From Patescibacteria group bacterium (GTDB lineage Bacteria; Patescibacteriota; Minisyncoccia; Moranbacterales; UBA2206): 64,000 nt of DNA. The notes below the pieces were generated by a model, which saw only the letters and a program-made list of their open reading frames with translations, did no database searches and had not been told where the DNA came from. The stretch's first letter is position 1; every line of letters begins with the position of its first letter. The stretch spans positions 130,028 to 194,027 of the forward strand of contig JAKLIG010000002.1 of assembly GCA_022709735.1 (NCBI GenBank), given 5' to 3'. Shown here piece by piece: positions 7,884 to 59,859 of this stretch. Both the position numbers and the translations under genes were made by a program.

Positions 7884-10445
7884 TTACGGAATTGTTGTCT
7901 TTACGGAAATACTTTTTGAATCAGTGTCGCCGTTCTTATCTTCAATAGTCGCCTTAATTGAAAGGGTGGTATTTTTTTTAGAATCAGGAACGGAATAAGT
8001 ATAACTTAACGAAGAATCAGAGGAAGAGGTAATATTATCGCCCTCAATAGACAGGGTGATTTTTTTAACTCCGAAAGGTGCATTTGCTTTGGCTTTAATA
8101 GTAAAAGAAGATGAGGTGATCGTGTCTCCATTCGAAGGGGAAGAAATATCGACACTAGGTTTGAATTTTTTAAAATCATCCGCCTTGCATTCTTTTTCTG
8201 GTGTTGGTCGAGAAGAATAGCCGTCCTTTTTATCTAGCCACTTTTCAATAGCCTTTTCCCAATTCTTAAATTGCGGATCATCTTCTGGATCTTTTGGAGC
8301 ATCTCCGCGCGGATCATCTTTTTGAACATAATAAAGAATAGAATGAGCATCGGCAAATTTTTTCTTATCTCTTTCGGATTCTGGGCAATTATCATTTGCT
8401 AAGCAATAATCATTAGATCCGGGAATTTTGCAAACAGATATTTCTTTTTTATCATCCAGTTTTCCATCTAAAACATCCTTGCCAGTTTCTTCTTTTTCAT
8501 ATTTAGGAAACTCTTCAATATTATAATTAGCCAAGGCCTTGTCCATAAATTCCCGCCAAATCGGTGCAGCAACATAAGAACCATCGGCCCCCTTGGCCAT
8601 TATGGAATTGTCGTTATTTCCTGCCCAAACACCAGCGACAAGCGAAGGAGTATAGCCGATTGTCCAACCATCTCGCCATTCATTGGTTGTTCCAGTTTTA
8701 GCGGCGACTGGGCGGTCATCAAAACGCAAAGGATTTTTTTCGCCAAAGACTGGAGCGCGAAGATCATTGGTGGATAAAATATAATCTATCATTGACACAT
8801 ATTTTTCTTCAATCACTCTTTGTCCATCACTGGGTTTGTATTGTTCCAGCACATTCCCACTGCCATCCTCTACTTTTAAAATAGAAATAATTGAATGGTG
8901 GATTCCGCCGGTAGCAAAAGTAGAAAAAGCATTCACATGATCAATAAGTTTAACTTCACCTCCGCCAAGCACTAAAGATAAACCATAATCATCAGGATTT
9001 TTAAGCGTGGTTATTCCCATTTTGTGAGCAGTATCGATGGAGTTTTGTACGCCGGCTAAATATAATGTTTCAACGGCCGGGACATTAAGAGACATTGCTA
9101 GGGCGTCTTTCATTTTGAGAAGTCCGCGATTTTCGCCGTCATAATTTTTTGGATTATATTCTTTTCCGCTGTCAGTGGAAAAATTAGTATCCACATCCCA
9201 AAGATTAGTTTCGGGCGTATAACCTTTTTCAAAGGCAGTTAGATAAACATAAGGCTTGAAAGAAGAGCCGGGCTGGCGAAGGGCAGTAGCTACATTGAAA
9301 TTTCCTTCAAACTGGCAATTTTTTCCGGAGATGCAACCAGTTGGCGTTGCTTTTCCGAAATAATCTTTTGATCCAACCATCGCTAAAACTTGGCCAGTTT
9401 TTGGATCCATTGCTACAAGCGCTTGGTTGTTAGATTTATAAACTTTTGCATCTTTTTCGGAATTATTTTTTATCGCTTCTTCAGCAATTTTTTGTTTATC
9501 CCAATCAAGCGTGGTATAAACTTTGAGCCCGCCTTGTTCCACCATTTGCTCGCCGTATTTTTTTTCAAGCATTTCCTTGATGTACATCACAAAATGCGGA
9601 GCGCTGATATTATCCGAGAAGGGTTTTATTTTTGAAAAAACATCTGTTTCTTTGGCAGTGTTCGCTTGATCTTCGGTGATGCATCCAAGCTTAACCATTT
9701 GATCCAGAGCATATTCTTGGCGAGCTTTTAGATTTTCAGTATGACTGCCGTAAGGAGAATAATAAGAGGGTGCTTTGGGAAGTGAAGCTAAGAGGGCGGA
9801 TTCATCAAGCGTGAGCTCGCTGGCATGTTTGCCAAAAAAAGTTTGGGAGGCGGATTCTACGCCATAAGCATTAGAGCCATAAGGAATTTCATTGAGATAC
9901 ATCGCAAGAATTTCATTTTTTTCAAACTTTTGTTCGAGTTCAAGAGCCAGAATAACTTCTTTAATTTTTCGGGTAAAAGTTTTTTCCGAAGTAAGAAGAG
10001 ATTGTTTGATAAGTTGTTGAGTTATAGTTGACCCGCCTTGTGCGGCGCCAAGATTAAAAATGTCTTTGAACGCAGCGCGCAAAATACTTTTCGGCTGAAT
10101 GCCGATATGATTATAAAAAGCCTGGTCTTCGAGAGCAATGGCAGCAAACTTGATTGTGTCAGGCATTTGCTCGAAAGGAATTTCCGTTCTTTTTTCTTCG
10201 CCATGAACTTCATAAAGAAGATGATCTCCGGTGCGGTCGTAAATTTTGGTTGATTGCACGACAAAGCGCTTATTGAGATTTCCTGGGCTTGGAAGATCTT
10301 TGGCAAACCAAGCGAAAACACCGACTGTAAAAAGTAAAATAATTCCAAAGAAAATCAGTGACCATTTTCTCAAGAATTTCCAATTAATCCTAAAATGCTT
10401 TTTCCCAGAAAAATCACTCCTATTTCTATGCTTAAATATATACAT
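7884..10445 (-). CDS. class A penicillin-binding protein (glycosyltransferase + transpeptidase) with a C-terminal Ig-like extension
   Basis: GT51 motifs (EDQAFYNHIGI, GGSTITQQL); transpeptidase SSFKP (SxxK) and KTGTT. Possible own promoter TTGAAA-17-TAAAAT on the minus strand in the 10446-10514 gap. Confidence 0.9.
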   Translation of the reverse strand: MYIFKHRNRSDFSGKKHFRINWKFLRKWSLIFFGIILLFTVGVFAWFAKDLPSPGNLNKRFVVQSTKIYDRTGDHLLYEVHGEEKRTEIPFEQMPDTIKFAAIALEDQAFYNHIGIQPKSILRAAFKDIFNLGAAQGGSTITQQLIKQSLLTSEKTFTRKIKEVILALELEQKFEKNEILAMYLNEIPYGSNAYGVESASQTFFGKHASELTLDESALLASLPKAPSYYSPYGSHTENLKARQEYALDQMVKLGCITEDQANTAKETDVFSKIKPFSDNISAPHFVMYIKEMLEKKYGEQMVEQGGLKVYTTLDWDKQKIAEEAIKNNSEKDAKVYKSNNQALVAMDPKTGQVLAMVGSKDYFGKATPTGCISGKNCQFEGNFNVATALRQPGSSFKPYVYLTAFEKGYTPETNLWDVDTNFSTDSGKEYNPKNYDGENRGLLKMKDALAMSLNVPAVETLYLAGVQNSIDTAHKMGITTLKNPDDYGLSLVLGGGEVKLIDHVNAFSTFATGGIHHSIISILKVEDGSGNVLEQYKPSDGQRVIEEKYVSMIDYILSTNDLRAPVFGEKNPLRFDDRPVAAKTGTTNEWRDGWTIGYTPSLVAGVWAGNNDNSIMAKGADGSYVAAPIWREFMDKALANYNIEEFPKYEKEETGKDVLDGKLDDKKEISVCKIPGSNDYCLANDNCPESERDKKKFADAHSILYYVQKDDPRGDAPKDPEDDPQFKNWEKAIEKWLDKKDGYSSRPTPEKECKADDFKKFKPSVDISSPSNGDTITSSSFTIKAKANAPFGVKKITLSIEGDNITSSSDSSLSYTYSVPDSKKNTTLSIKATIEDKNGDTDSKSISVKTTIP

Positions 10446-55282: not shown

Positions 55283-56596
55283 ATGGCTAAAGCCAAGAAA
55301 AAAAAGAAAAAAATTTCTAAGAAAAAACCTGCTTCCAAAAAACTCAGAAAAAAAGCATCCGTTCGAAGAAAGAAAATCGCTAAGAAAAAAACTAAACTCA
55401 AGCGCAAGGTCAAAAAAGTTTTTCGCAAAAAAAAGCGCGAAGAGAAGAAAGTAAAAAAGATTTCAAAATCGACGGAAGAAAAAAACGCTAAAAGGCGCGA
55501 TGATATTGACGAGTTAGTTTATCGTGGGAAACAGAGAGGTTTTATCACGGAAGACGAAATTTTGCATGCTATTCCGGACGCGGAAAGAGAAATTGAAAAA
55601 TTAGAAGAACTTTATGAAAAGTTGGAAAAGAAAAGTATCCGGGTGATCAATTCTGATGAGATGATACGAATGGAAACGGACAAAATTTCTGAAAATCTGG
55701 ACAAGCAAAAATCCAGCAAGAGAAAAGCAAAAAAAGATACGCTGGATGTTGGCGCTTCCGAGGAAGCTTCCTCGGATCTTGTGCAAATGTATCTTCGGGA
55801 AATCGGCCGAGTAGATCTTTTGAGCACTGAAGAAGAAATATCTTTGGCAAAAAGAATTGAAAAGGGAGATCTTATGGCCAAGCAAAGACTCACTGAAGCC
55901 AACCTTCGCTTAGTAGTGAGTATCGCCAAAAAATATGTTGGAAGATCACACAATCTTTCTCTTTTGGATTTGATCCAGGAAGGAAATATCGGGCTTTTTC
56001 GGGCGGTCGAAAAATTTGATTATCGAAAGGGGTATAAATTTTCTACTTATGCGACTTGGTGGATTCGTCAAGCAGTGACAAGAGCGCTGGCTGATCAATC
56101 TCGAACAATTCGCATTCCAGTGCATATGGTGGAGACAATTAATAAGTATACGCAGGTAACAAGGAGGCTCGTGCAAGATCTTGGAAGAGAACCACTACCA
56201 GAAGAAATCGCAGTGGAAATGGGAATCGAGGTGGATAAAATTCGCCACATTCAAAAAATTTCTCAAGAGACAGTATCGCTGGAAACTTCTGTCGGTGACA
56301 GCGATGATGACAGCGTACTTGGAGATTTTATCGAAGATACAGAAACAGTAATGCCAAATCAAATCGCTTCGAGAAAAATGCTCAAGGAACATGTAGCGGA
56401 AATTCTAAAAGATCTTACCCCAAGAGAACAAAAAATTCTAAAAATTCGTTTCGGCTTGGAAGACGGCGTGACACATACTTTGGAAGAAGTGGGGCAGGAA
56501 TTTGGCGTAACGAGGGAAAGAATTCGGCAGATTGAAGCCAAAGCGCTGGAAAAAATTCGTGATCATGGGACGATCAAAAAGCTTAGAGATTACTAA
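55283..56596 (+). CDS. rpoD: RNA polymerase sigma-70 factor RpoD with a Lys-rich N-terminal extension
   Basis: Region 2 [40 protein letters not shown]; region 4 ...[14 protein letters not shown]... Confidence 0.95.
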
Positions 56597-56620
56597 AAAG
56601 ATATCCACATATCCGCATTT

Positions 56621-56646
56621 GACAAAAAATGTAGGTATGCTAAATT
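56621..56646 (+). promoter_or_regulatory. sigma70-like promoter TTGACA-16-TAAATT driving leader ORF 1 (transcript essentially leaderless)
   Basis: ttgaca(56621-56626) aaaaatgtaggtatgc taaatt(56641-56646); ATG at 56656. Confidence 0.5.
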
Positions 56647-56655
56647 AGCCTTGTT

Positions 56656-56754
56656 ATGAAGAACATGCAAACTAAATTTTATTTTATATTGTCTTTGATT
56701 ATTATTCTGGTCCTCAAGACCGGTCTTGGTTTGCATGAAATGAAAAAGGCATAA
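56656..56754 (+). CDS. 32-codon leader peptide, Ile/Leu/Val-rich (MKNMQTKFYFILSLIIILVLKTGLGLHEMKKA)
   Basis: Frame conserved with the paralog at 57575; three consecutive ATT Ile codons plus Leu/Val codons sit just 5' of the region-1/2 stems. Confidence 0.5.
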   Translation: MKNMQTKFYFILSLIIILVLKTGLGLHEMKKA

Positions 56755-56810
56755 AAGTAAATCCATTTCAAATAAACCAAGGCCGATCTCGTAAAAAGGA
56801 TCGGTTTTTT
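56714..56810 (+). promoter_or_regulatory. transcription attenuator: palindrome 1:2 (CAAGACC/GGTCTTG), antiterminator 2:3 (56718-56732 with 56774-56788, 14/15 bp), terminator 3:4 (CCGATC 56783-56788 / GATCGG 56799-56804 + TTTTTT)
   Basis: Mutually exclusive pairings read directly from the sequence; a U-run follows the terminator. Confidence 0.55.
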
Positions 56811-56826
56811 AGTTCTTTGAGAAAAA

Positions 56827-56881
56827 TTTGATAGCTAAAATAGGGTTTTAATAAATTTAAATCTTTATTTTGGCTATCAAA
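56827..56881. repeat. 15-bp inverted repeat TTTGATAGCTAAAAT ... ATTTTGGCTATCAAA (one G-U) with a 25-nt spacer, between the attenuator and the next SD
   Basis: Read directly. Confidence 0.5.
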
Positions 56882-56907
56882 TAAAACAATTTTAAAGGAA
56901 GGTAATT

Positions 56908-57099
56908 ATGATAATAAATATATTAGATGAAAAAGTAGGTGCGCCAGCTGGAGAATATGATGTATGGGGAGAAGATCAAACAGAAACATTATTATTTCTT
57001 AAACCTAAATCAAAAAAAAGTTGCAGAGAAACCTTATTGTATATAAATAAAATTAATCTGCAATCATTAAAGGATAGAGGAATGATAAAAGTTGACTAG
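56908..57099 (+). CDS. small hypothetical protein (63 aa)
   Basis: Strong SD aaggaagg 5 nt before ATG; no known family. Confidence 0.45.
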   Translation: MIINILDEKVGAPAGEYDVWGEDQTETLLFLKPKSKKSCRETLLYINKINLQSLKDRGMIKVD

Positions 57100-57157
57100 A
57101 AGAGTGTGTGGAGGTATAGCATAAACAAGAAAAGAAAAATAAAAAGGAGAGGCGAAA

Positions 57158-57361
57158 ATGAAGCAAAAGACAGTAGGTGCAGATGAGGATAGCACCCCCG
57201 GGATTAAAAGATCAAAAAACCTGGTGTCTCTTTTTGGCAAAAGAGTGATTCCAGGGGTAAGAGTTATTGGCATAGCAGGGCTCGGAAACGAGGAATCTGA
57301 CGAAAATAATGCAGGAGTGGCAAACTTATCGCCACCTCCTGGCAGAGAACCTTTCTTCTAA
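57158..57361 (+). CDS. small hypothetical protein (67 aa), Gly/acidic-rich C-terminus ending PPPGREPFF
   Basis: Strong SD aaaaggagagg; no known family. Confidence 0.45.
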   Translation: MKQKTVGADEDSTPGIKRSKNLVSLFGKRVIPGVRVIGIAGLGNEESDENNAGVANLSPPPGREPFF

Positions 57362-57528
57362 AAAATGAGAGAAAATCCTCTCGAAAAATTTTGGCAGGGC
57401 CTCGATGTCTACAAGACATTCTATGTCTGATGGGGCTTAACCATAAGCTCCAGTGCCAAAAAAACAAGGGGAAAGGTGACACAATCACTTTTTCCCTTGC
57501 ATCTAAAATCAAATTAAATTTTTATATA

Positions 57529-57556
57529 TTGACAGAATCTCAGCAGATGATAAACT
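57529..57556 (+). promoter_or_regulatory. sigma70-like promoter TTGACA-16-TAAACT driving leader ORF 2
   Basis: ttgaca(57529-57534) gaatctcagcagatga taaact(57551-57556). Confidence 0.5.
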
Positions 57557-57574
57557 GATAAAGTAAAAAAAGAA

Positions 57575-57673
57575 ATGTCAAAACAAACCAGCCAAAAATT
57601 TTATAGCTTTAATTACTTTTATTTCTGGTTTAGCCAGATCGGTTTTGTTTTGCATAAAATGAAAAAAATATAA
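57575..57673 (+). CDS. 32-codon leader peptide, Phe/Tyr/Trp-rich (MSKQTSQKFYSFNYFYFWFSQIGFVLHKMKKI)
   Basis: Same length, same C-terminal motif (LH.MKK.*) and same position relative to the stems as leader 1; 6 Phe + 3 Tyr + 1 Trp codons clustered before the stems. Confidence 0.5.
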   Translation: MSKQTSQKFYSFNYFYFWFSQIGFVLHKMKKI

Positions 57674-57727
57674 GACATTATTCATTTTAGATAAACCAAA
57701 GCCGATCTCACGCGAGACCGGTTTTTT
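57624..57727 (+). promoter_or_regulatory. transcription attenuator, paralog of 56714-56810: 1:2 TCTGG/CCAGA, antiterminator 57635-57651 with 57693-57709, terminator CCGATCTC-acgc-GAGACCGG + TTTTTT (57702-57727)
   Basis: Antiterminator 3' strand overlaps the terminator 5' arm; a compensatory C-G to U-A change relative to copy 1. Confidence 0.55.
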
Positions 57728-57812
57728 AGTTCTTTAAAACAATACACCAAAATTTTAAAATATTTGTTTAAATTACAAAAACACAACAAATAAAAGAAAG
57801 AAAGGAGTACAG

Positions 57813-58709
57813 ATGAGCACACTAATTGAATTTCAAGGATGGAGATTTACTACTTCAAATGTAACGGAAATTTTTTCGAAAGAAGCAGAGGGGCAAGCAA
57901 TCAGTGAGCTAAATAACTGGAAAGGCAATTTTCCGGTTGAAGAAACATGGGTGCAAAGGACTCTTGGTATTCCATCTCTGATTGTTCGCCTAGATTGCGT
58001 TGTTAAAAACGGGAAATTATTAATCTTTGAGATTGAAGAACGTCCCGCTGGAATTGGCGTAACGACCATATTAAATCCAGTTTTTTCCAAAAAATTCAAC
58101 AATTTAAGGAATGGCTGGCCAGAAATTAAATCAGTAGTAACAAAAGAGAGAAGTTCATGCGACGATTATTTATGGACGGAGTGCATCCCTATTGAAGTAG
58201 CTGAAAAAGATGATTGCTTGCTTCTCGTTCGTGCTGAACCGGAAGAAACGCAATTTCATAAATTTGTTTCTCGCTCTGTTAGCACGGTAATTACCAAGGG
58301 CGATAAACAATATGGCAAAGAAATGGGGTTGTGGGAAGAGGTGTCAATAACCGATTTTTATCGATTGCCATGGGATTCTGGATTTTGCTTGAAGCCTCTT
58401 AAGGGCTCAAAATGCAGAAATGTTGAAATCTGGCATCCTATTTTTGCGAAAAAGAAGAGTGGCATAGGTGGCATATCAACAAAATCCCGAATCCAGAAAG
58501 TCTTGGGATCCTATGGCAAGATGTATCTGCAAAAATTTATCGAACCCATGGAAAAACCTGGTGACAAATCCCTAATGATGGCCTATCGAGTTTTTTTTGG
58601 TTATGATTTATCAATCAAAGAGTATAGATATTTAGGTGGCGCTTGGAATGCCAGAGCAAATATTAAAATTCACGGAACACCGGATACTATAATGGGTGCT
58701 GTGAACTGA
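57813..58709 (+). CDS. hypothetical protein (298 aa), no recognised family
   Basis: SD aaaggag; immediately downstream of the aromatic-leader attenuator. Confidence 0.5.
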   Translation: MSTLIEFQGWRFTTSNVTEIFSKEAEGQAISELNNWKGNFPVEETWVQRTLGIPSLIVRLDCVVKNGKLLIFEIEERPAGIGVTTILNPVFSKKFNNLRNGWPEIKSVVTKERSSCDDYLWTECIPIEVAEKDDCLLLVRAEPEETQFHKFVSRSVSTVITKGDKQYGKEMGLWEEVSITDFYRLPWDSGFCLKPLKGSKCRNVEIWHPIFAKKKSGIGGISTKSRIQKVLGSYGKMYLQKFIEPMEKPGDKSLMMAYRVFFGYDLSIKEYRYLGGAWNARANIKIHGTPDTIMGAVN

Positions 58710-58782: not shown

Positions 58783-59859
58783 ATGGACAATATAGCTAAA
58801 TTAGCATCAGAATTGATTAAGTTTAAATCAATTAAGGAAAATATTTCAGAAAGAAAAAGAATAGTTTCATTTGTAAAAACACAATTTAAAAATGTTCCTG
58901 TTTTTATAAAGGAATTTGATAAAAATAATAATCCTTCGATAATTATAACTTTAAAAAAAGAAAAATGCCCAAAGATTTTTTTAATTGGGCATCTTGATGT
59001 AGTCCTTGCTAATGATTCACAATTTCAATCTAAGATTAAAGATAAAAAATTGTTCGGAAGAGGCGCGGGTGATATGAAATTAGCAGATGCAGTTATGATA
59101 GAAGTAGTAAAATATTTTGCAAAAAAGAAAAGAAAACTTTCTCTGGGATTGATGTTAACTACTGATGAAGAAACAGGTGGATTTAATGGTGTGAATTTTT
59201 TATTAAATAATAAAAAATATTCTTCAAAGTTGGCGATTATACCTGATGGAGGACCAAATTTAAAAAATATTATAGTAAATCAAAAGGGTGTATTACATCT
59301 AAAGCTAAAATCTTTTGGGATATCAGCACATGCCTCTAGGCCTTTTTTGGGACAAAATGCCATAGATGATTTATATTTAAAATATTTAAAAATTAGAAAA
59401 ATTATTCCATTTACTGAGAAAAATGAATGGAAAGATACCATGAGTCTGGGAAAATTTTATGGCGGGGAAGCAATAAATAAAGTGCCTGATTATGCAGAAA
59501 TGTTTATAGATATAAGATATATAAAGGATAATGGGAAGAAAATAATTTTAAAAAAAATAAGCAACATTGTTAATTGGGAACTTATTTCTCATGGAAAGTC
59601 TCTTGTTCAGAGTACGAAGAATATTTATTTAAAAGAATTTAAAAAATTGTTAAAAAGCGAAACAGGCGATGAAGTTTTTTTCAGCAAGGTTGAGGGCTCT
59701 TCTGACGCAAGATTTTTTTCCGAAAATAAAATTCCTGTTATTATAACAAGAATAAATTGTGGCAATATACATGGTGAAAATGAATGGGGCGATTTGGAAG
59801 AAGCTAATATTTTTCAAGATGTTTTAAAAAAATTTATAAATAAAATTTGTGATCATTAA
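58783..59859 (+). CDS. M20-family metallopeptidase (ArgE/DapE/dipeptidase-like)
   Basis: IFLIGHLDVV...GRGAGDMK...LTTDEETGG metal-binding and catalytic motifs of the M20 family. Confidence 0.7.
   Translation: MDNIAKLASELIKFKSIKENISERKRIVSFVKTQFKNVPVFIKEFDKNNNPSIIITLKKEKCPKIFLIGHLDVVLANDSQFQSKIKDKKLFGRGAGDMKLADAVMIEVVKYFAKKKRKLSLGLMLTTDEETGGFNGVNFLLNNKKYSSKLAIIPDGGPNLKNIIVNQKGVLHLKLKSFGISAHASRPFLGQNAIDDLYLKYLKIRKIIPFTEKNEWKDTMSLGKFYGGEAINKVPDYAEMFIDIRYIKDNGKKIILKKISNIVNWELISHGKSLVQSTKNIYLKEFKKLLKSETGDEVFFSKVEGSSDARFFSENKIPVIITRINCGNIHGENEWGDLEEANIFQDVLKKFINKICDH

Follow-up and report, generated by a model that had tools for sequence, protein, structure and literature searches.

The closest described systems are the leader-peptide attenuators of Escherichia coli (trpL, pheL/pheA, pheM/pheST, ilvL, hisL, leuL and thrL), where a short open reading frame (ORF) with a cluster of regulatory codons is followed by overlapping 1:2, 2:3 and 3:4 pairings and an intrinsic terminator ahead of the structural genes, and where the position of the ribosome decides which fold is adopted. 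Here, I describe an element with the same parts at positions 57529–57727 of a 64,000-nucleotide stretch of DNA (hereafter the window) from a Patescibacteria group bacterium. Its leader ORF has 32 codons, the size of ilvL, is rich in Phe, Tyr and Trp codons, and lies upstream of genes for a predicted ATP-grasp ligase and an M20 deacylase. A paralogous element, rich in Ile, Leu and Val codons, is found 900 nt upstream of it; the two are referred to below as copy 2 and copy 1, respectively. From their computed anatomy, conservation, covariation, frame-specific codon bias and placement of the ATG relative to the promoter, together with modeling of a stalled ribosome, I propose that copy 2 is probably a ribosome-dependent transcription attenuator tuned to aromatic codons, and copy 1 its counterpart tuned to Ile/Leu.

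These elements depart from the E. coli leaders in several respects. The host belongs to the Patescibacteria, or Candidate Phyla Radiation (CPR); the regulatory codons are a mixture of Phe, Tyr and Trp (with His and Met in relatives) and not those of a single amino acid; the ORF lacks a Shine-Dalgarno sequence, and most members of the family are predicted to be leaderless; the stop codon is located in the loop of the 2:3 hairpin instead of between regions 1 and 2; and what follows is an uncharacterised ATP-grasp ligase with an M20 deacylase, and neither a known biosynthetic pathway nor a transfer RNA (tRNA) synthetase. Neshat et al. reportedly described, in 2014, corynebacterial leader ORFs on leaderless transcripts. 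Mixed aromatic regulatory codons, as seen here, are found in the aroR leader of Corynebacterium glutamicum, upstream of aroF, where Phe-Tyr-Phe codons control read-through by ribosome stalling (PMC11802643). However, aroR controls 3-deoxy-D-arabinoheptulosonate 7-phosphate synthase, and hence aromatic biosynthesis, whereas the operon in the window is not a known biosynthetic one, and its leader adds Trp and has a far longer cluster, with 8 aromatic codons within codons 9–19 (F9, Y10, then the run F12–F19).

Leaderless short ORFs with poly-Cys codons, at the 5' ends of mycobacterial operons, are reported to be amino-acid-responsive attenuators (10.1101/834739). Most elements described here are likewise predicted to be leaderless short ORFs, but would sense different amino acids; a canonical intrinsic terminator and antiterminator are present here, and covary. 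Finally, leaders placed in series, as with copy 1 and copy 2 and in the related loci L001, L017, L020, L022, L023 and L024, recall tandem riboswitches and T-boxes, but the sensor would here be the translating ribosome and not a ligand- or tRNA-binding RNA. T-box and riboswitch models gave no match to the elements.

At gathering thresholds, Rfam searches of the window and 16 related loci identified no leader family, only tRNAs and chance-level matches, and a search of positions 56550–57850 at E ≤ 10 likewise returned only chance-level matches. The Phe_leader model (RF01859) scored 20 bits on copy 1 (gathering score 55, E-value 1.9), and did not match copy 2. Neither leader peptide had a Pfam or NCBIfam match. 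The element thus lies outside all curated leader families and yet, as judged from its sequence, has the structure that defines a leader-peptide attenuator.

Genomes of the CPR are tiny, with few regulators that can be recognised, and are not known to encode the biosynthesis of amino acids. The literature searched, the coverage of which was incomplete, yielded no account of attenuation by leader peptides in CPR, Patescibacteria or Saccharibacteria, which does not prove novelty. The mechanism proposed is a classical, textbook one which, as far as the literature searched goes, has not been described in CPR or before these genes; the value of the observation lies in where attenuation would occur and what it would control, and not in a new principle.

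Architecture of the two window elements

An earlier reading of this DNA, made from the letters alone (hereafter the sequence-only reading), had proposed for copy 2 a promoter, a 32-codon ORF, a run of aromatic codons, a TCTGG/CCAGA helix, a pairing between regions 2 and 3 and a terminator. All of these were recovered where it had placed them (Table 1). Across positions 56500–57900, the best promoter-like sites are that of copy 2 and its twin in copy 1. The leader ORF of copy 2 is preceded by a predicted A-rich 5' untranslated region of ∼11–12 nt; no Shine-Dalgarno sequence is found before it or before the ORF of copy 1, while the neighboring genes carry strong ones.

Within the 171-nt copy 2 leader, which as a whole folds more stably than its dinucleotide shuffles (z-score −5.2), region 2 pairs with region 3 between positions 57636–57647 and 57708–57697 (12 base pairs, one of them G-U), and between 57649–57651 and 57695–57693. 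The RNAduplex free energy (dG) of this pairing is −18.5 (z-score −4.9), a value that none of 200 dinucleotide shuffles equalled. The whole 8-nt 5' arm of the terminator is taken up in this pairing, and positions 57702–57709 belong to both the antiterminator and the terminator, in agreement with the overlap noted in the sequence-only reading. That reading had also placed region 1 after the codon cluster; the TCTGG/CCAGA helix is indeed present, but region 1 shares the final two codons of the cluster. When copy 2 is folded at equilibrium, region 1 (CTGGTTT and GC) is paired to the terminator 3' arm. The terminator itself forms 7 of its 8 possible pairs, with one A.C mismatch and a dG of −7.3, and is located 86 nt before the next gene.

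The paralogy of the two copies, also proposed in the sequence-only reading, is borne out by their ORFs of 32 codons each, the common LH.MKK. ending and the identical layout. Their homology crosses frame-shifting indels, such that TTCTGGT is read in different frames, and both ORFs nonetheless remain open over 32 codons. As for the compensatory changes reported between the copies, a C-G pair replaced by U-A, and a G-C pair replaced by A-U at the base of the apical helix, are genuine, but one other position is a mismatch or bulge in copy 2. Covariation judged from two copies alone is thin; with 15 homologues, as described below, it becomes solid. No third copy was found within the window, and a generic scan of the window for a promoter, leaderless small ORF and terminator returned copy 1 only.

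Conservation across the Patescibacteria

Homologues of the first downstream gene, which encodes a 298-amino-acid protein, were identified in Patescibacteria only (69 clusters). A scan with the family alignment, using one genome per species, gave 30 loci, from Moraniibacteriota, Paceibacterota, Saccharimonadales, Levy-, Doudna- and Wildermuthbacteria, and others. Upstream of the homologue, a small ORF followed by a hairpin and U tract is present on the same strand in ∼25 of 31 distinct loci, spanning several classes, and sometimes in tandem. A strand-blind scan of all loci for a promoter, an ATG within 5–10 nt, an ORF of 10–50 codons and a terminator recovered almost only these sites, which are on the strand of the ATP-grasp gene.

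In two homologues with 51–53% protein identity, the upstream DNA is arranged as in the window: a small Ile/Leu/Val-rich ORF with a terminator is followed by small ORFs without known function, next by a single aromatic small ORF or a pair of them, each with its terminator, and finally by the ATP-grasp and M20 genes. The aromatic leaders in these relatives are MINNIAKTLYTSFYFWFSPRGRFVFAKKM, MKNTLQGQFSFYYFWFFKKAGLCDVELNR and MQIIFQNFYFYFWFFFFGRSVFVVN. Two closer orthologues, L037 and L038, were obtained by a DNA-pattern scan of metagenomes, and both possess a leader of 32 codons: MSKQINQNFYSVYSFSFWFSQIGFGLLKMNRA in L037, with the promoter TTGACA-16-TAAGAT and upstream of an unknown 112-amino-acid gene, and MINLQTKNLYSFYYFFFWFFSQIGFGFVKIKA in L038, directly after rpoD. 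The small ORF and codon bias put forward in the sequence-only reading therefore recur in two orthologues of about the same length, and in some 30 more distant elements.

In L038, the slot after rpoD (9390–9590) is occupied by an aromatic-type leader, while in the window (56596–56812) it holds the Ile/Leu/Val type, and one RNA scaffold can therefore carry different regulatory codons. To judge from the sequences, the regulatory codons seem to have been exchanged while the scaffold was kept. The two post-rpoD leaders also have similar N-termini (M.N.QTK) and a similar RNA scaffold.

Tandem units of leader and terminator before a single ATP-grasp gene were observed in L001 (3523–3945), L017 (277–602), L020 (3477–3785), L022 (3522–3845), L023 (3524–3831) and L024 (3641–3880), the second unit usually lacking a promoter or Shine-Dalgarno sequence of its own. 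Other candidates for a promoter, leaderless small ORF and terminator were identified away from the ATP-grasp gene in L013 (6143–6300), L025 (467–598) and L026 (7572–7748). Their peptides have other compositions (for instance MKLSSFLLSISIIRIAES), and they may be other attenuators.

Covariation of the antiterminator and terminator

For further analysis I used a curated set of 34 elements, of which 31 are of the aromatic type and three of the Ile/Leu type. The terminator 5' arm and the 14 nt before it, taken as region 3, were paired against the ORF region. In 33 of the 34 elements, the best duplex extends over the complete 5' arm of the terminator; in the remaining one, L021, it takes in 10 of 12 nt. 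Compared to 200 dinucleotide shuffles of the upstream sequence, the median z-score of the antiterminator is −4.6, with values below −2 in 29/34. The stop codon is usually found 3–19 nt past region 2, in the loop of the 2:3 hairpin. The helix sequences vary by lineage, with both partners changing jointly (GATCGG/CCGATC, GGGAGG/CCTCCC, CGGTGG/CCACCG, GGTCGC/CCGGCC and others).

Covariation was quantified on a sequence-only MAFFT alignment of 15 elements (alignment A3). The antiterminator columns are 84.8% paired, 18 of 25 pairs have changed on both sides, and 57 double-change cells are observed; when the pairing is slid, these values drop to 31–52% paired and 8–16 cells, and none of 500 shuffles reaches those observed. 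For the terminator, 94.2% of positions are paired, with 18 double-change cells against 0–3 in the slid controls. Both helices proposed in the sequence-only reading therefore covary, and the same region 3 columns do so with region 2 and with region 4. On this alignment, such covariation with both partners is the signature of a putative switch.

The 1:2 helix can be seen by eye in most elements. An alignment-free test was also applied to region 1, in which pairing of the terminator 3' arm was computed with native or shuffled upstream sequence. The mean pairing is 0.85 for native sequences and 0.64 for shuffled ones (Wilcoxon p = 4e-7), and in the window copies 0.96–0.97 against 0.31–0.52, with no shuffle out of 60 as high; for copy 2, region 4 pairing is 0.96 native and 0.31 shuffled. 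Within the folding model, this supports a function for region 1.

Codon bias of the leader ORF

Among the 31 aromatic-type leaders, Phe, Tyr and Trp account for 41% of the ten codons that precede region 2, compared to a background of ∼10%, and this enrichment is restricted to the ORF frame. It amounts to 8.4% for Trp (background 1.4%; other frames 0.4% and 0.5%), 20.1% for Phe (background 5.0%; other frames 7.5% and 8.4%) and 12.6% for Tyr (background 3.3%; other frames 2.9% and 9.7%). His and Met are moderately enriched as well, and Trp is present in 28/31 peptides, where ∼10 would be expected. The aromatic bias on which the sequence-only reading based its proposal of Phe/Tyr/Trp sensing is therefore real, but across the family the set of codons is broader, with His and Met included and Trp nearly universal.

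Past the cluster, the peptide is not conserved while the RNA pairing is; for ATCGGTTTT, as an example, the reading frame in the window differs from that in L001. The frame is nevertheless open from the start codon into region 2 in every curated element, despite strong divergence. In 17 of the 22 elements with a strong promoter match, the ATG is found 6–9 nt after the −10 hexamer, and thus coincides with the expected start site or is no more than ∼3 nt away from it, such that their mRNAs are predicted to be leaderless. This placement ties the ORF to the start of transcription, and accounts for the missing Shine-Dalgarno sequence in most elements. Copy 1, with a gap of 9 nt, fits this prediction. 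Copy 2 and L037 share instead a conserved A-rich leader of ∼11 nt.

Modeling of a stalled ribosome and proposed mechanism

The effect of a ribosome on the fold was modeled by masking a footprint from −15 to +12 relative to the A site, at each codon in turn, and computing the partition function. The read-out was the pairing of the last 5 nt of the terminator 3' arm to any partner. The probability of the pure 3:4 terminator had been used as a read-out initially and was replaced, as it predicts antitermination for many elements when the ribosome is absent, or when it is placed right on the stop codon.

In copy 2, the pairing is 0.96 without a ribosome, and 0.9 with codons 2–13 in the A site. It decreases to 0.5 at Y14 and to 0.0–0.2 at F15, Y16, F17 and W18, before returning to 0.6–0.7 from F19 on and to 0.9 near the end; the modeled stall window is therefore Y14–W18 (57614–57628). 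In copy 1 the dip occurs at I15, I16 and I17, and is partial at L18. These results agree with the pair of branched-chain and aromatic sensors suggested in the sequence-only reading, and L037 and L038 behave like copy 2. Among the 31 aromatic-type elements, 19 pass a filter requiring region 4 to be at least 0.6 paired without a ribosome and below 0.35 somewhere in the ORF. In these, the dip codons are 39% F/Y/W, compared to 19% outside the dip (Fisher p 4e-4), and 63% F/Y/W/H/M, compared to 23% outside (p 1e-10). That the terminator is unformed only with a ribosome at the biased codons corresponds to the classical logic of attenuation.

From this I infer a possible course of translation, stalling, termination and starvation response. 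A strong sigma-70-type promoter would start a short transcript, whose first AUG opens the 32-codon ORF. A ribosome that is not slowed down would enter region 2 and reach the stop codon in the 2:3 loop, freeing region 3 to pair with region 4, and transcription would terminate at the U6 tract, upstream of the ATP-grasp gene. Without a ribosome, region 1 would keep the terminator 3' arm paired through the 1:2 and 3:4 helices, again leading to termination; alternatively, as in the equilibrium fold of copy 2, a nested hairpin of the 1:4 and 2:3 helices abutting the U tract would terminate. When charged tRNA-Phe, -Tyr or -Trp is scarce, the ribosome would stall with Y14–W18 in the A site and mask region 1, leaving region 2 free to form the 2:3 antiterminator; region 4 would then lack a partner, and RNA polymerase would read through into the ATP-grasp and M20 operon. 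Copy 1 would follow the same scheme with Ile (and Leu) codons, and control two small ORFs upstream of copy 2. Most likely, to judge from the sequence, a shortage of aromatic amino acids causes the host to switch on the operon of the ligase and the peptidase.

Weighing the proposed attenuator against other explanations

Several observations count against attenuation tuned to aromatic codons. No clean stall window is found by the model in 12 of the 31 aromatic-type elements, and with a ribosome placed right on the stop codon both region 2 and region 3 stay accessible, such that termination under replete conditions would depend on kinetics or sterics; the model is one of equilibrium with an assumed footprint, and co-transcriptional kinetics are outside it. 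In alignment A3, column covariation of the 1:2 helix is weak and its register ambiguous, and the 1:4 helix shows no column covariation across the family. The nested 1:4 helix was for this reason dropped as a conserved family feature and retained for the window copies and orthologues only, as it closes the minimum-free-energy fold of copy 1, copy 2, L037 and L038. The set of elements was selected in part by requiring an ORF. The terminator of copy 2 is weak, on account of both its dG and its mismatch. Copy 2 (gap of 18 nt) and L037 (gap of 16 nt) are not leaderless by prediction, and yet lack a Shine-Dalgarno sequence. Distant lineages often possess a single Trp with mixed Tyr, His and Met neighbors, and no homopolymeric run. 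Lastly, the ATP-grasp and M20 genes have no known part in the synthesis, charging or uptake of aromatic amino acids.

The same RNA switch might instead be operated by arrest of the nascent peptide and not by a lack of charged tRNA, possibly in concert with an antibiotic or other small molecule inside the tunnel of the ribosome, as for the TnaC, SpeFL or Erm leaders. The near-invariant Trp, with its aromatic, His or Met neighbors, would then be the arrest motif: it is kept in 28/31 leaders, is usually single and is flanked by F/Y/H/M, which is more motif-like than a homopolymeric run. The downstream genes are not biosynthetic, and the fold of the ATP-grasp protein resembles that of glutathionylspermidine synthetase, recalling polyamine-linked arrest peptides, of which SpeFL is one. 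I nonetheless consider this unlikely. The aromatic residues follow no set order, number or spacing (FYFW, YYFW, FYWFHY, YLW, HLMW and others), and the distance from the Trp to region 2 ranges from 9 to 32 nt, whereas known arrest peptides have a fixed motif and spacing. Moreover, the paralogue and the type-B elements replace the cluster by Ile/Leu/Val runs on the same scaffold, which fits the sensing of codons, and termination is here intrinsic, whereas TnaC and SpeFL use Rho-dependent termination.

The strong promoter and terminator would delimit a discrete RNA of ∼160 nt with a very stable fold (z-score −5.2), and it might therefore be supposed that copy 2 is a trans-acting or dual-function small RNA, in which the ORF is incidental or secondary. 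A precedent is reported in rnTrpL of Sinorhizobium, an attenuator-derived small RNA with a role in trans (PMC6614838). This is improbable here: the F/Y/W enrichment is specific to one frame, the ATG is at the predicted transcription start in most members, the frame is open into region 2 in all curated elements despite strong divergence and despite frame-shifting indels between the window copies, and the element lies immediately ahead of particular genes and strictly on their strand. A role in trans would be in addition to attenuation and would not replace it.

It could also be envisaged that the product of the ORF is a small hydrophobic protein with a function of its own, for instance a membrane protein or a type I toxin held in check by antisense RNA, with the hairpins stabilizing the mRNA. 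The peptide has a polar N-terminus, a hydrophobic or aromatic core and a basic C-terminus, and copy 1 as well as two other Ile/Leu-type elements score as transmembrane-like. However, a transmembrane-like window of 18 residues is present in only 6/34 peptides, and in copy 2 the maximum mean hydropathy over 18 residues is 0.86 and the longest uncharged run is 7 residues. The peptide after the cluster is not conserved, in contrast to the RNA pairing, and ATCGGTTTT is found in different frames between loci. On the minus strand, a weak antisense promoter-like site (GTGAGA-16-TAAAAT, 9/12) was observed inside copy 2, at 57711–57684, which could be taken in favor of an antisense RNA; it is at chance level, with ∼5 such sites expected in the AT-rich region scanned, and has no counterpart listed in copy 1. 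Tandem copies, and a fixed position before the same operon, are also unlike a toxin-antitoxin module. With peptides that are mostly not transmembrane-like and no conserved antisense promoter, the type I toxin-antitoxin pair, which the sequence-only reading had named as an alternative, is highly improbable.

The putatively regulated genes

The leader-peptide attenuator proposed above would control, in the first place, a 298-amino-acid protein for which no Pfam or NCBIfam family was identified. Its AlphaFold model is confident (predicted local distance difference test score, pLDDT, of 94.7), and the best matches to solved structures with Foldseek are glutathionylspermidine synthetase, glutathione synthetase and DcsG (E-value 1e-6, TM-score 0.5–0.6, ∼10% identity), which have the ATP-grasp ligase fold in common. 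A profile of the family gave no match to the sequences of the PDB. The protein is 100% identical to one that NCBI assigns to Candidatus Moranbacteria; exact-sequence look-ups of the leader peptide and of the 298-amino-acid protein returned no record. Some homologues possess an N-terminal extension of ∼150 amino acids (436–474 in total).

The second gene encodes an M20 (ArgE/DapE-like) metallo-deacylase or peptidase, whose closest solved relative, 2rb7, has no assigned function, and it follows the ATP-grasp gene in the loci whose called genes were listed. The sequence-only reading had pointed to a downstream M20 peptidase, which is present, but the first gene is ATP-grasp ligase-like and the operon is not one of M20 alone. 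Elsewhere, aromatic leaders are found directly before an AstE/AspA-type deacylase (PF24827, E-value 2e-17) in L021 (2784–3879), and before a SLOG cluster-4 protein (PF18306, E-value 6e-34) in L018 (3107–3787), in both cases with the ATP-grasp gene further downstream. Similar leaders in other loci also precede unrelated small proteins. An all-against-all BLAST of the small ORFs after type-B and aromatic leaders detected no similarity between loci, and there is therefore no common small-protein cargo.

The position of a short ORF directly before an ATP-grasp enzyme, in a conserved gene order, would suit a precursor of a ribosomally synthesised and post-translationally modified peptide, with the M20 protein as its processing peptidase, but this is hardly credible since there is no conserved core with Thr/Ser/Lys and Asp/Glu acceptor and donor residues, the C-terminal halves are not conserved as peptides, elements of the same kind precede unrelated genes (small unknown ORFs, the SLOG protein and the AstE/AspA deacylase), a terminator separates the ORF from the enzyme gene, and the ATP-grasp fold matches glutathione and glutathionylspermidine synthetases, not graspetide ligases.

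What the attenuated operon does is more speculative. A role in amino-acid scavenging, as envisaged in the sequence-only reading, is a guess; the liberation or salvage of amino acids by deacylases in an auxotroph is plausible. I tentatively suggest, as a possibility that I would not favor on present evidence, that the elements mark a previously unrecognised amino-acid-starvation regulon of the CPR, in which mostly leaderless, codon-tuned attenuators switch on an ATP-grasp ligase, M20 or AstE/AspA deacylases and small unknown proteins. This would be a new pathway for auxotrophic, host-dependent bacteria to obtain or liberate scarce amino acids, and, as part of the same tentative suggestion, the aromatic/His/Met and branched-chain types would be interchangeable on one RNA scaffold. 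Apart from that suggestion, a conserved family of ribosome-sensing attenuators would be a first concrete example of how the CPR, a large and uncultured group, regulate genes under amino-acid limitation, and induction at low levels of aromatic aminoacyl-tRNA would be a testable clue to the function of the orphan ATP-grasp and M20 pair found across the group. Such a family would also offer a natural example of one RNA scaffold re-tuned between aromatic and branched-chain codons, and an example of leader ORFs placed at the transcription start.

Coordinates and neighboring sequences

Table 1. Positions of the copy 1 and copy 2 elements and of the neighboring genes in the window.
Feature	Positions	Strand	Evidence or remarks
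Copy 1 element (Ile/Leu/Val type), ∼22 nt after the rpoD stop	56619–56810	+	Promoter, ORF, folds
Copy 1 promoter	56619–56646	+	10/12 match, extended −10
Copy 1 leader ORF, MKNMQTKFYFILSLIIILVLKTGLGLHEMKKA	56656–56754	+	32 codons, Ile/Leu/Val-rich; ATG 9 nt after −10, predicted near-leaderless
Copy 1 region 2	56716–56734	+	Antiterminator z-score −5.3
Copy 1 region 3	56772–56789	+	
Copy 1 terminator	56783–56810	+	
Two small ORFs between the copies: 63 amino acids (56908–57099) and 67 amino acids (57158–57361)	56908–57361	+	Good Shine-Dalgarno sequences
Copy 2 promoter: −35 TTGACA (57529–57534), 16-nt spacer, TG (57548–57549), −10 TAAACT (57551–57556)	57529–57556	+	10/12 match, extended −10
Copy 2 leader ORF, 32 codons, MSKQTSQKFYSFNYFYFWFSQIGFVLHKMKKI	57575–57673	+	Translation; 32-codon orthologues in L037 and L038
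Copy 2 regulatory codon cluster F12 N13 Y14 F15 Y16 F17 W18 F19 (TTT-AAT-TAC-TTT-TAT-TTC-TGG-TTT)	57608–57631	+	
Copy 2 region 1 (putative anti-antiterminator): TCTGG (57624–57628) pairing with CCAGA (57634–57638)	57624–57634	+	Thermodynamic test; weak 1:2 covariation
Copy 2 region 2, antiterminator 5' strand, within the 3' part of the ORF	57635–57654	+	dG −18.5, z-score −4.9; covariation
Copy 2 apical helix of the antiterminator hairpin, AAAATGAA/TTCATTTT, with the ORF stop codon (57671–57673) in the loop	57656–57688	+	Fold, covariation
Copy 2 region 3, antiterminator 3' strand; last 8 nt (57702–57709) are the terminator 5' arm	57689–57709	+	Same columns covary with both partners
Copy 2 intrinsic terminator, CCGATCTC-acgc-GAGACCGG and T6 (57722–57727); region 4 is 57714–57721	57702–57727	+	
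First putatively regulated gene, 298-amino-acid protein, predicted ATP-grasp ligase fold	57813–58709	+	AlphaFold, Foldseek
Second putatively regulated gene, M20 (ArgE/DapE-like) metallo-deacylase/peptidase	58783–59859	+	Conserved neighbor of the ATP-grasp gene

The two small ORFs between the copies are presumably under the control of copy 1; neither has a Pfam or NCBIfam family, and neither resembles the small ORFs that occupy this place in other loci. Between the copy 1 terminator and the first of these ORFs, a near-perfect hairpin of ∼57 nt was observed (56826–56882, dG −25.9). A match to mir-753 here (56825–56883, E-value 2e-4), the best local one with Rfam, was rejected as spurious; the hairpin might be bound by a protein as an operator, serve as a processing site or constitute a second structure. 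Two comparable inverted repeats are found in L001 (about 2838–2960), at the same place after its Ile/Leu-type leader. Upstream of copy 1, the rpoD product begins with a very lysine-rich N-terminal extension (55283–55450).

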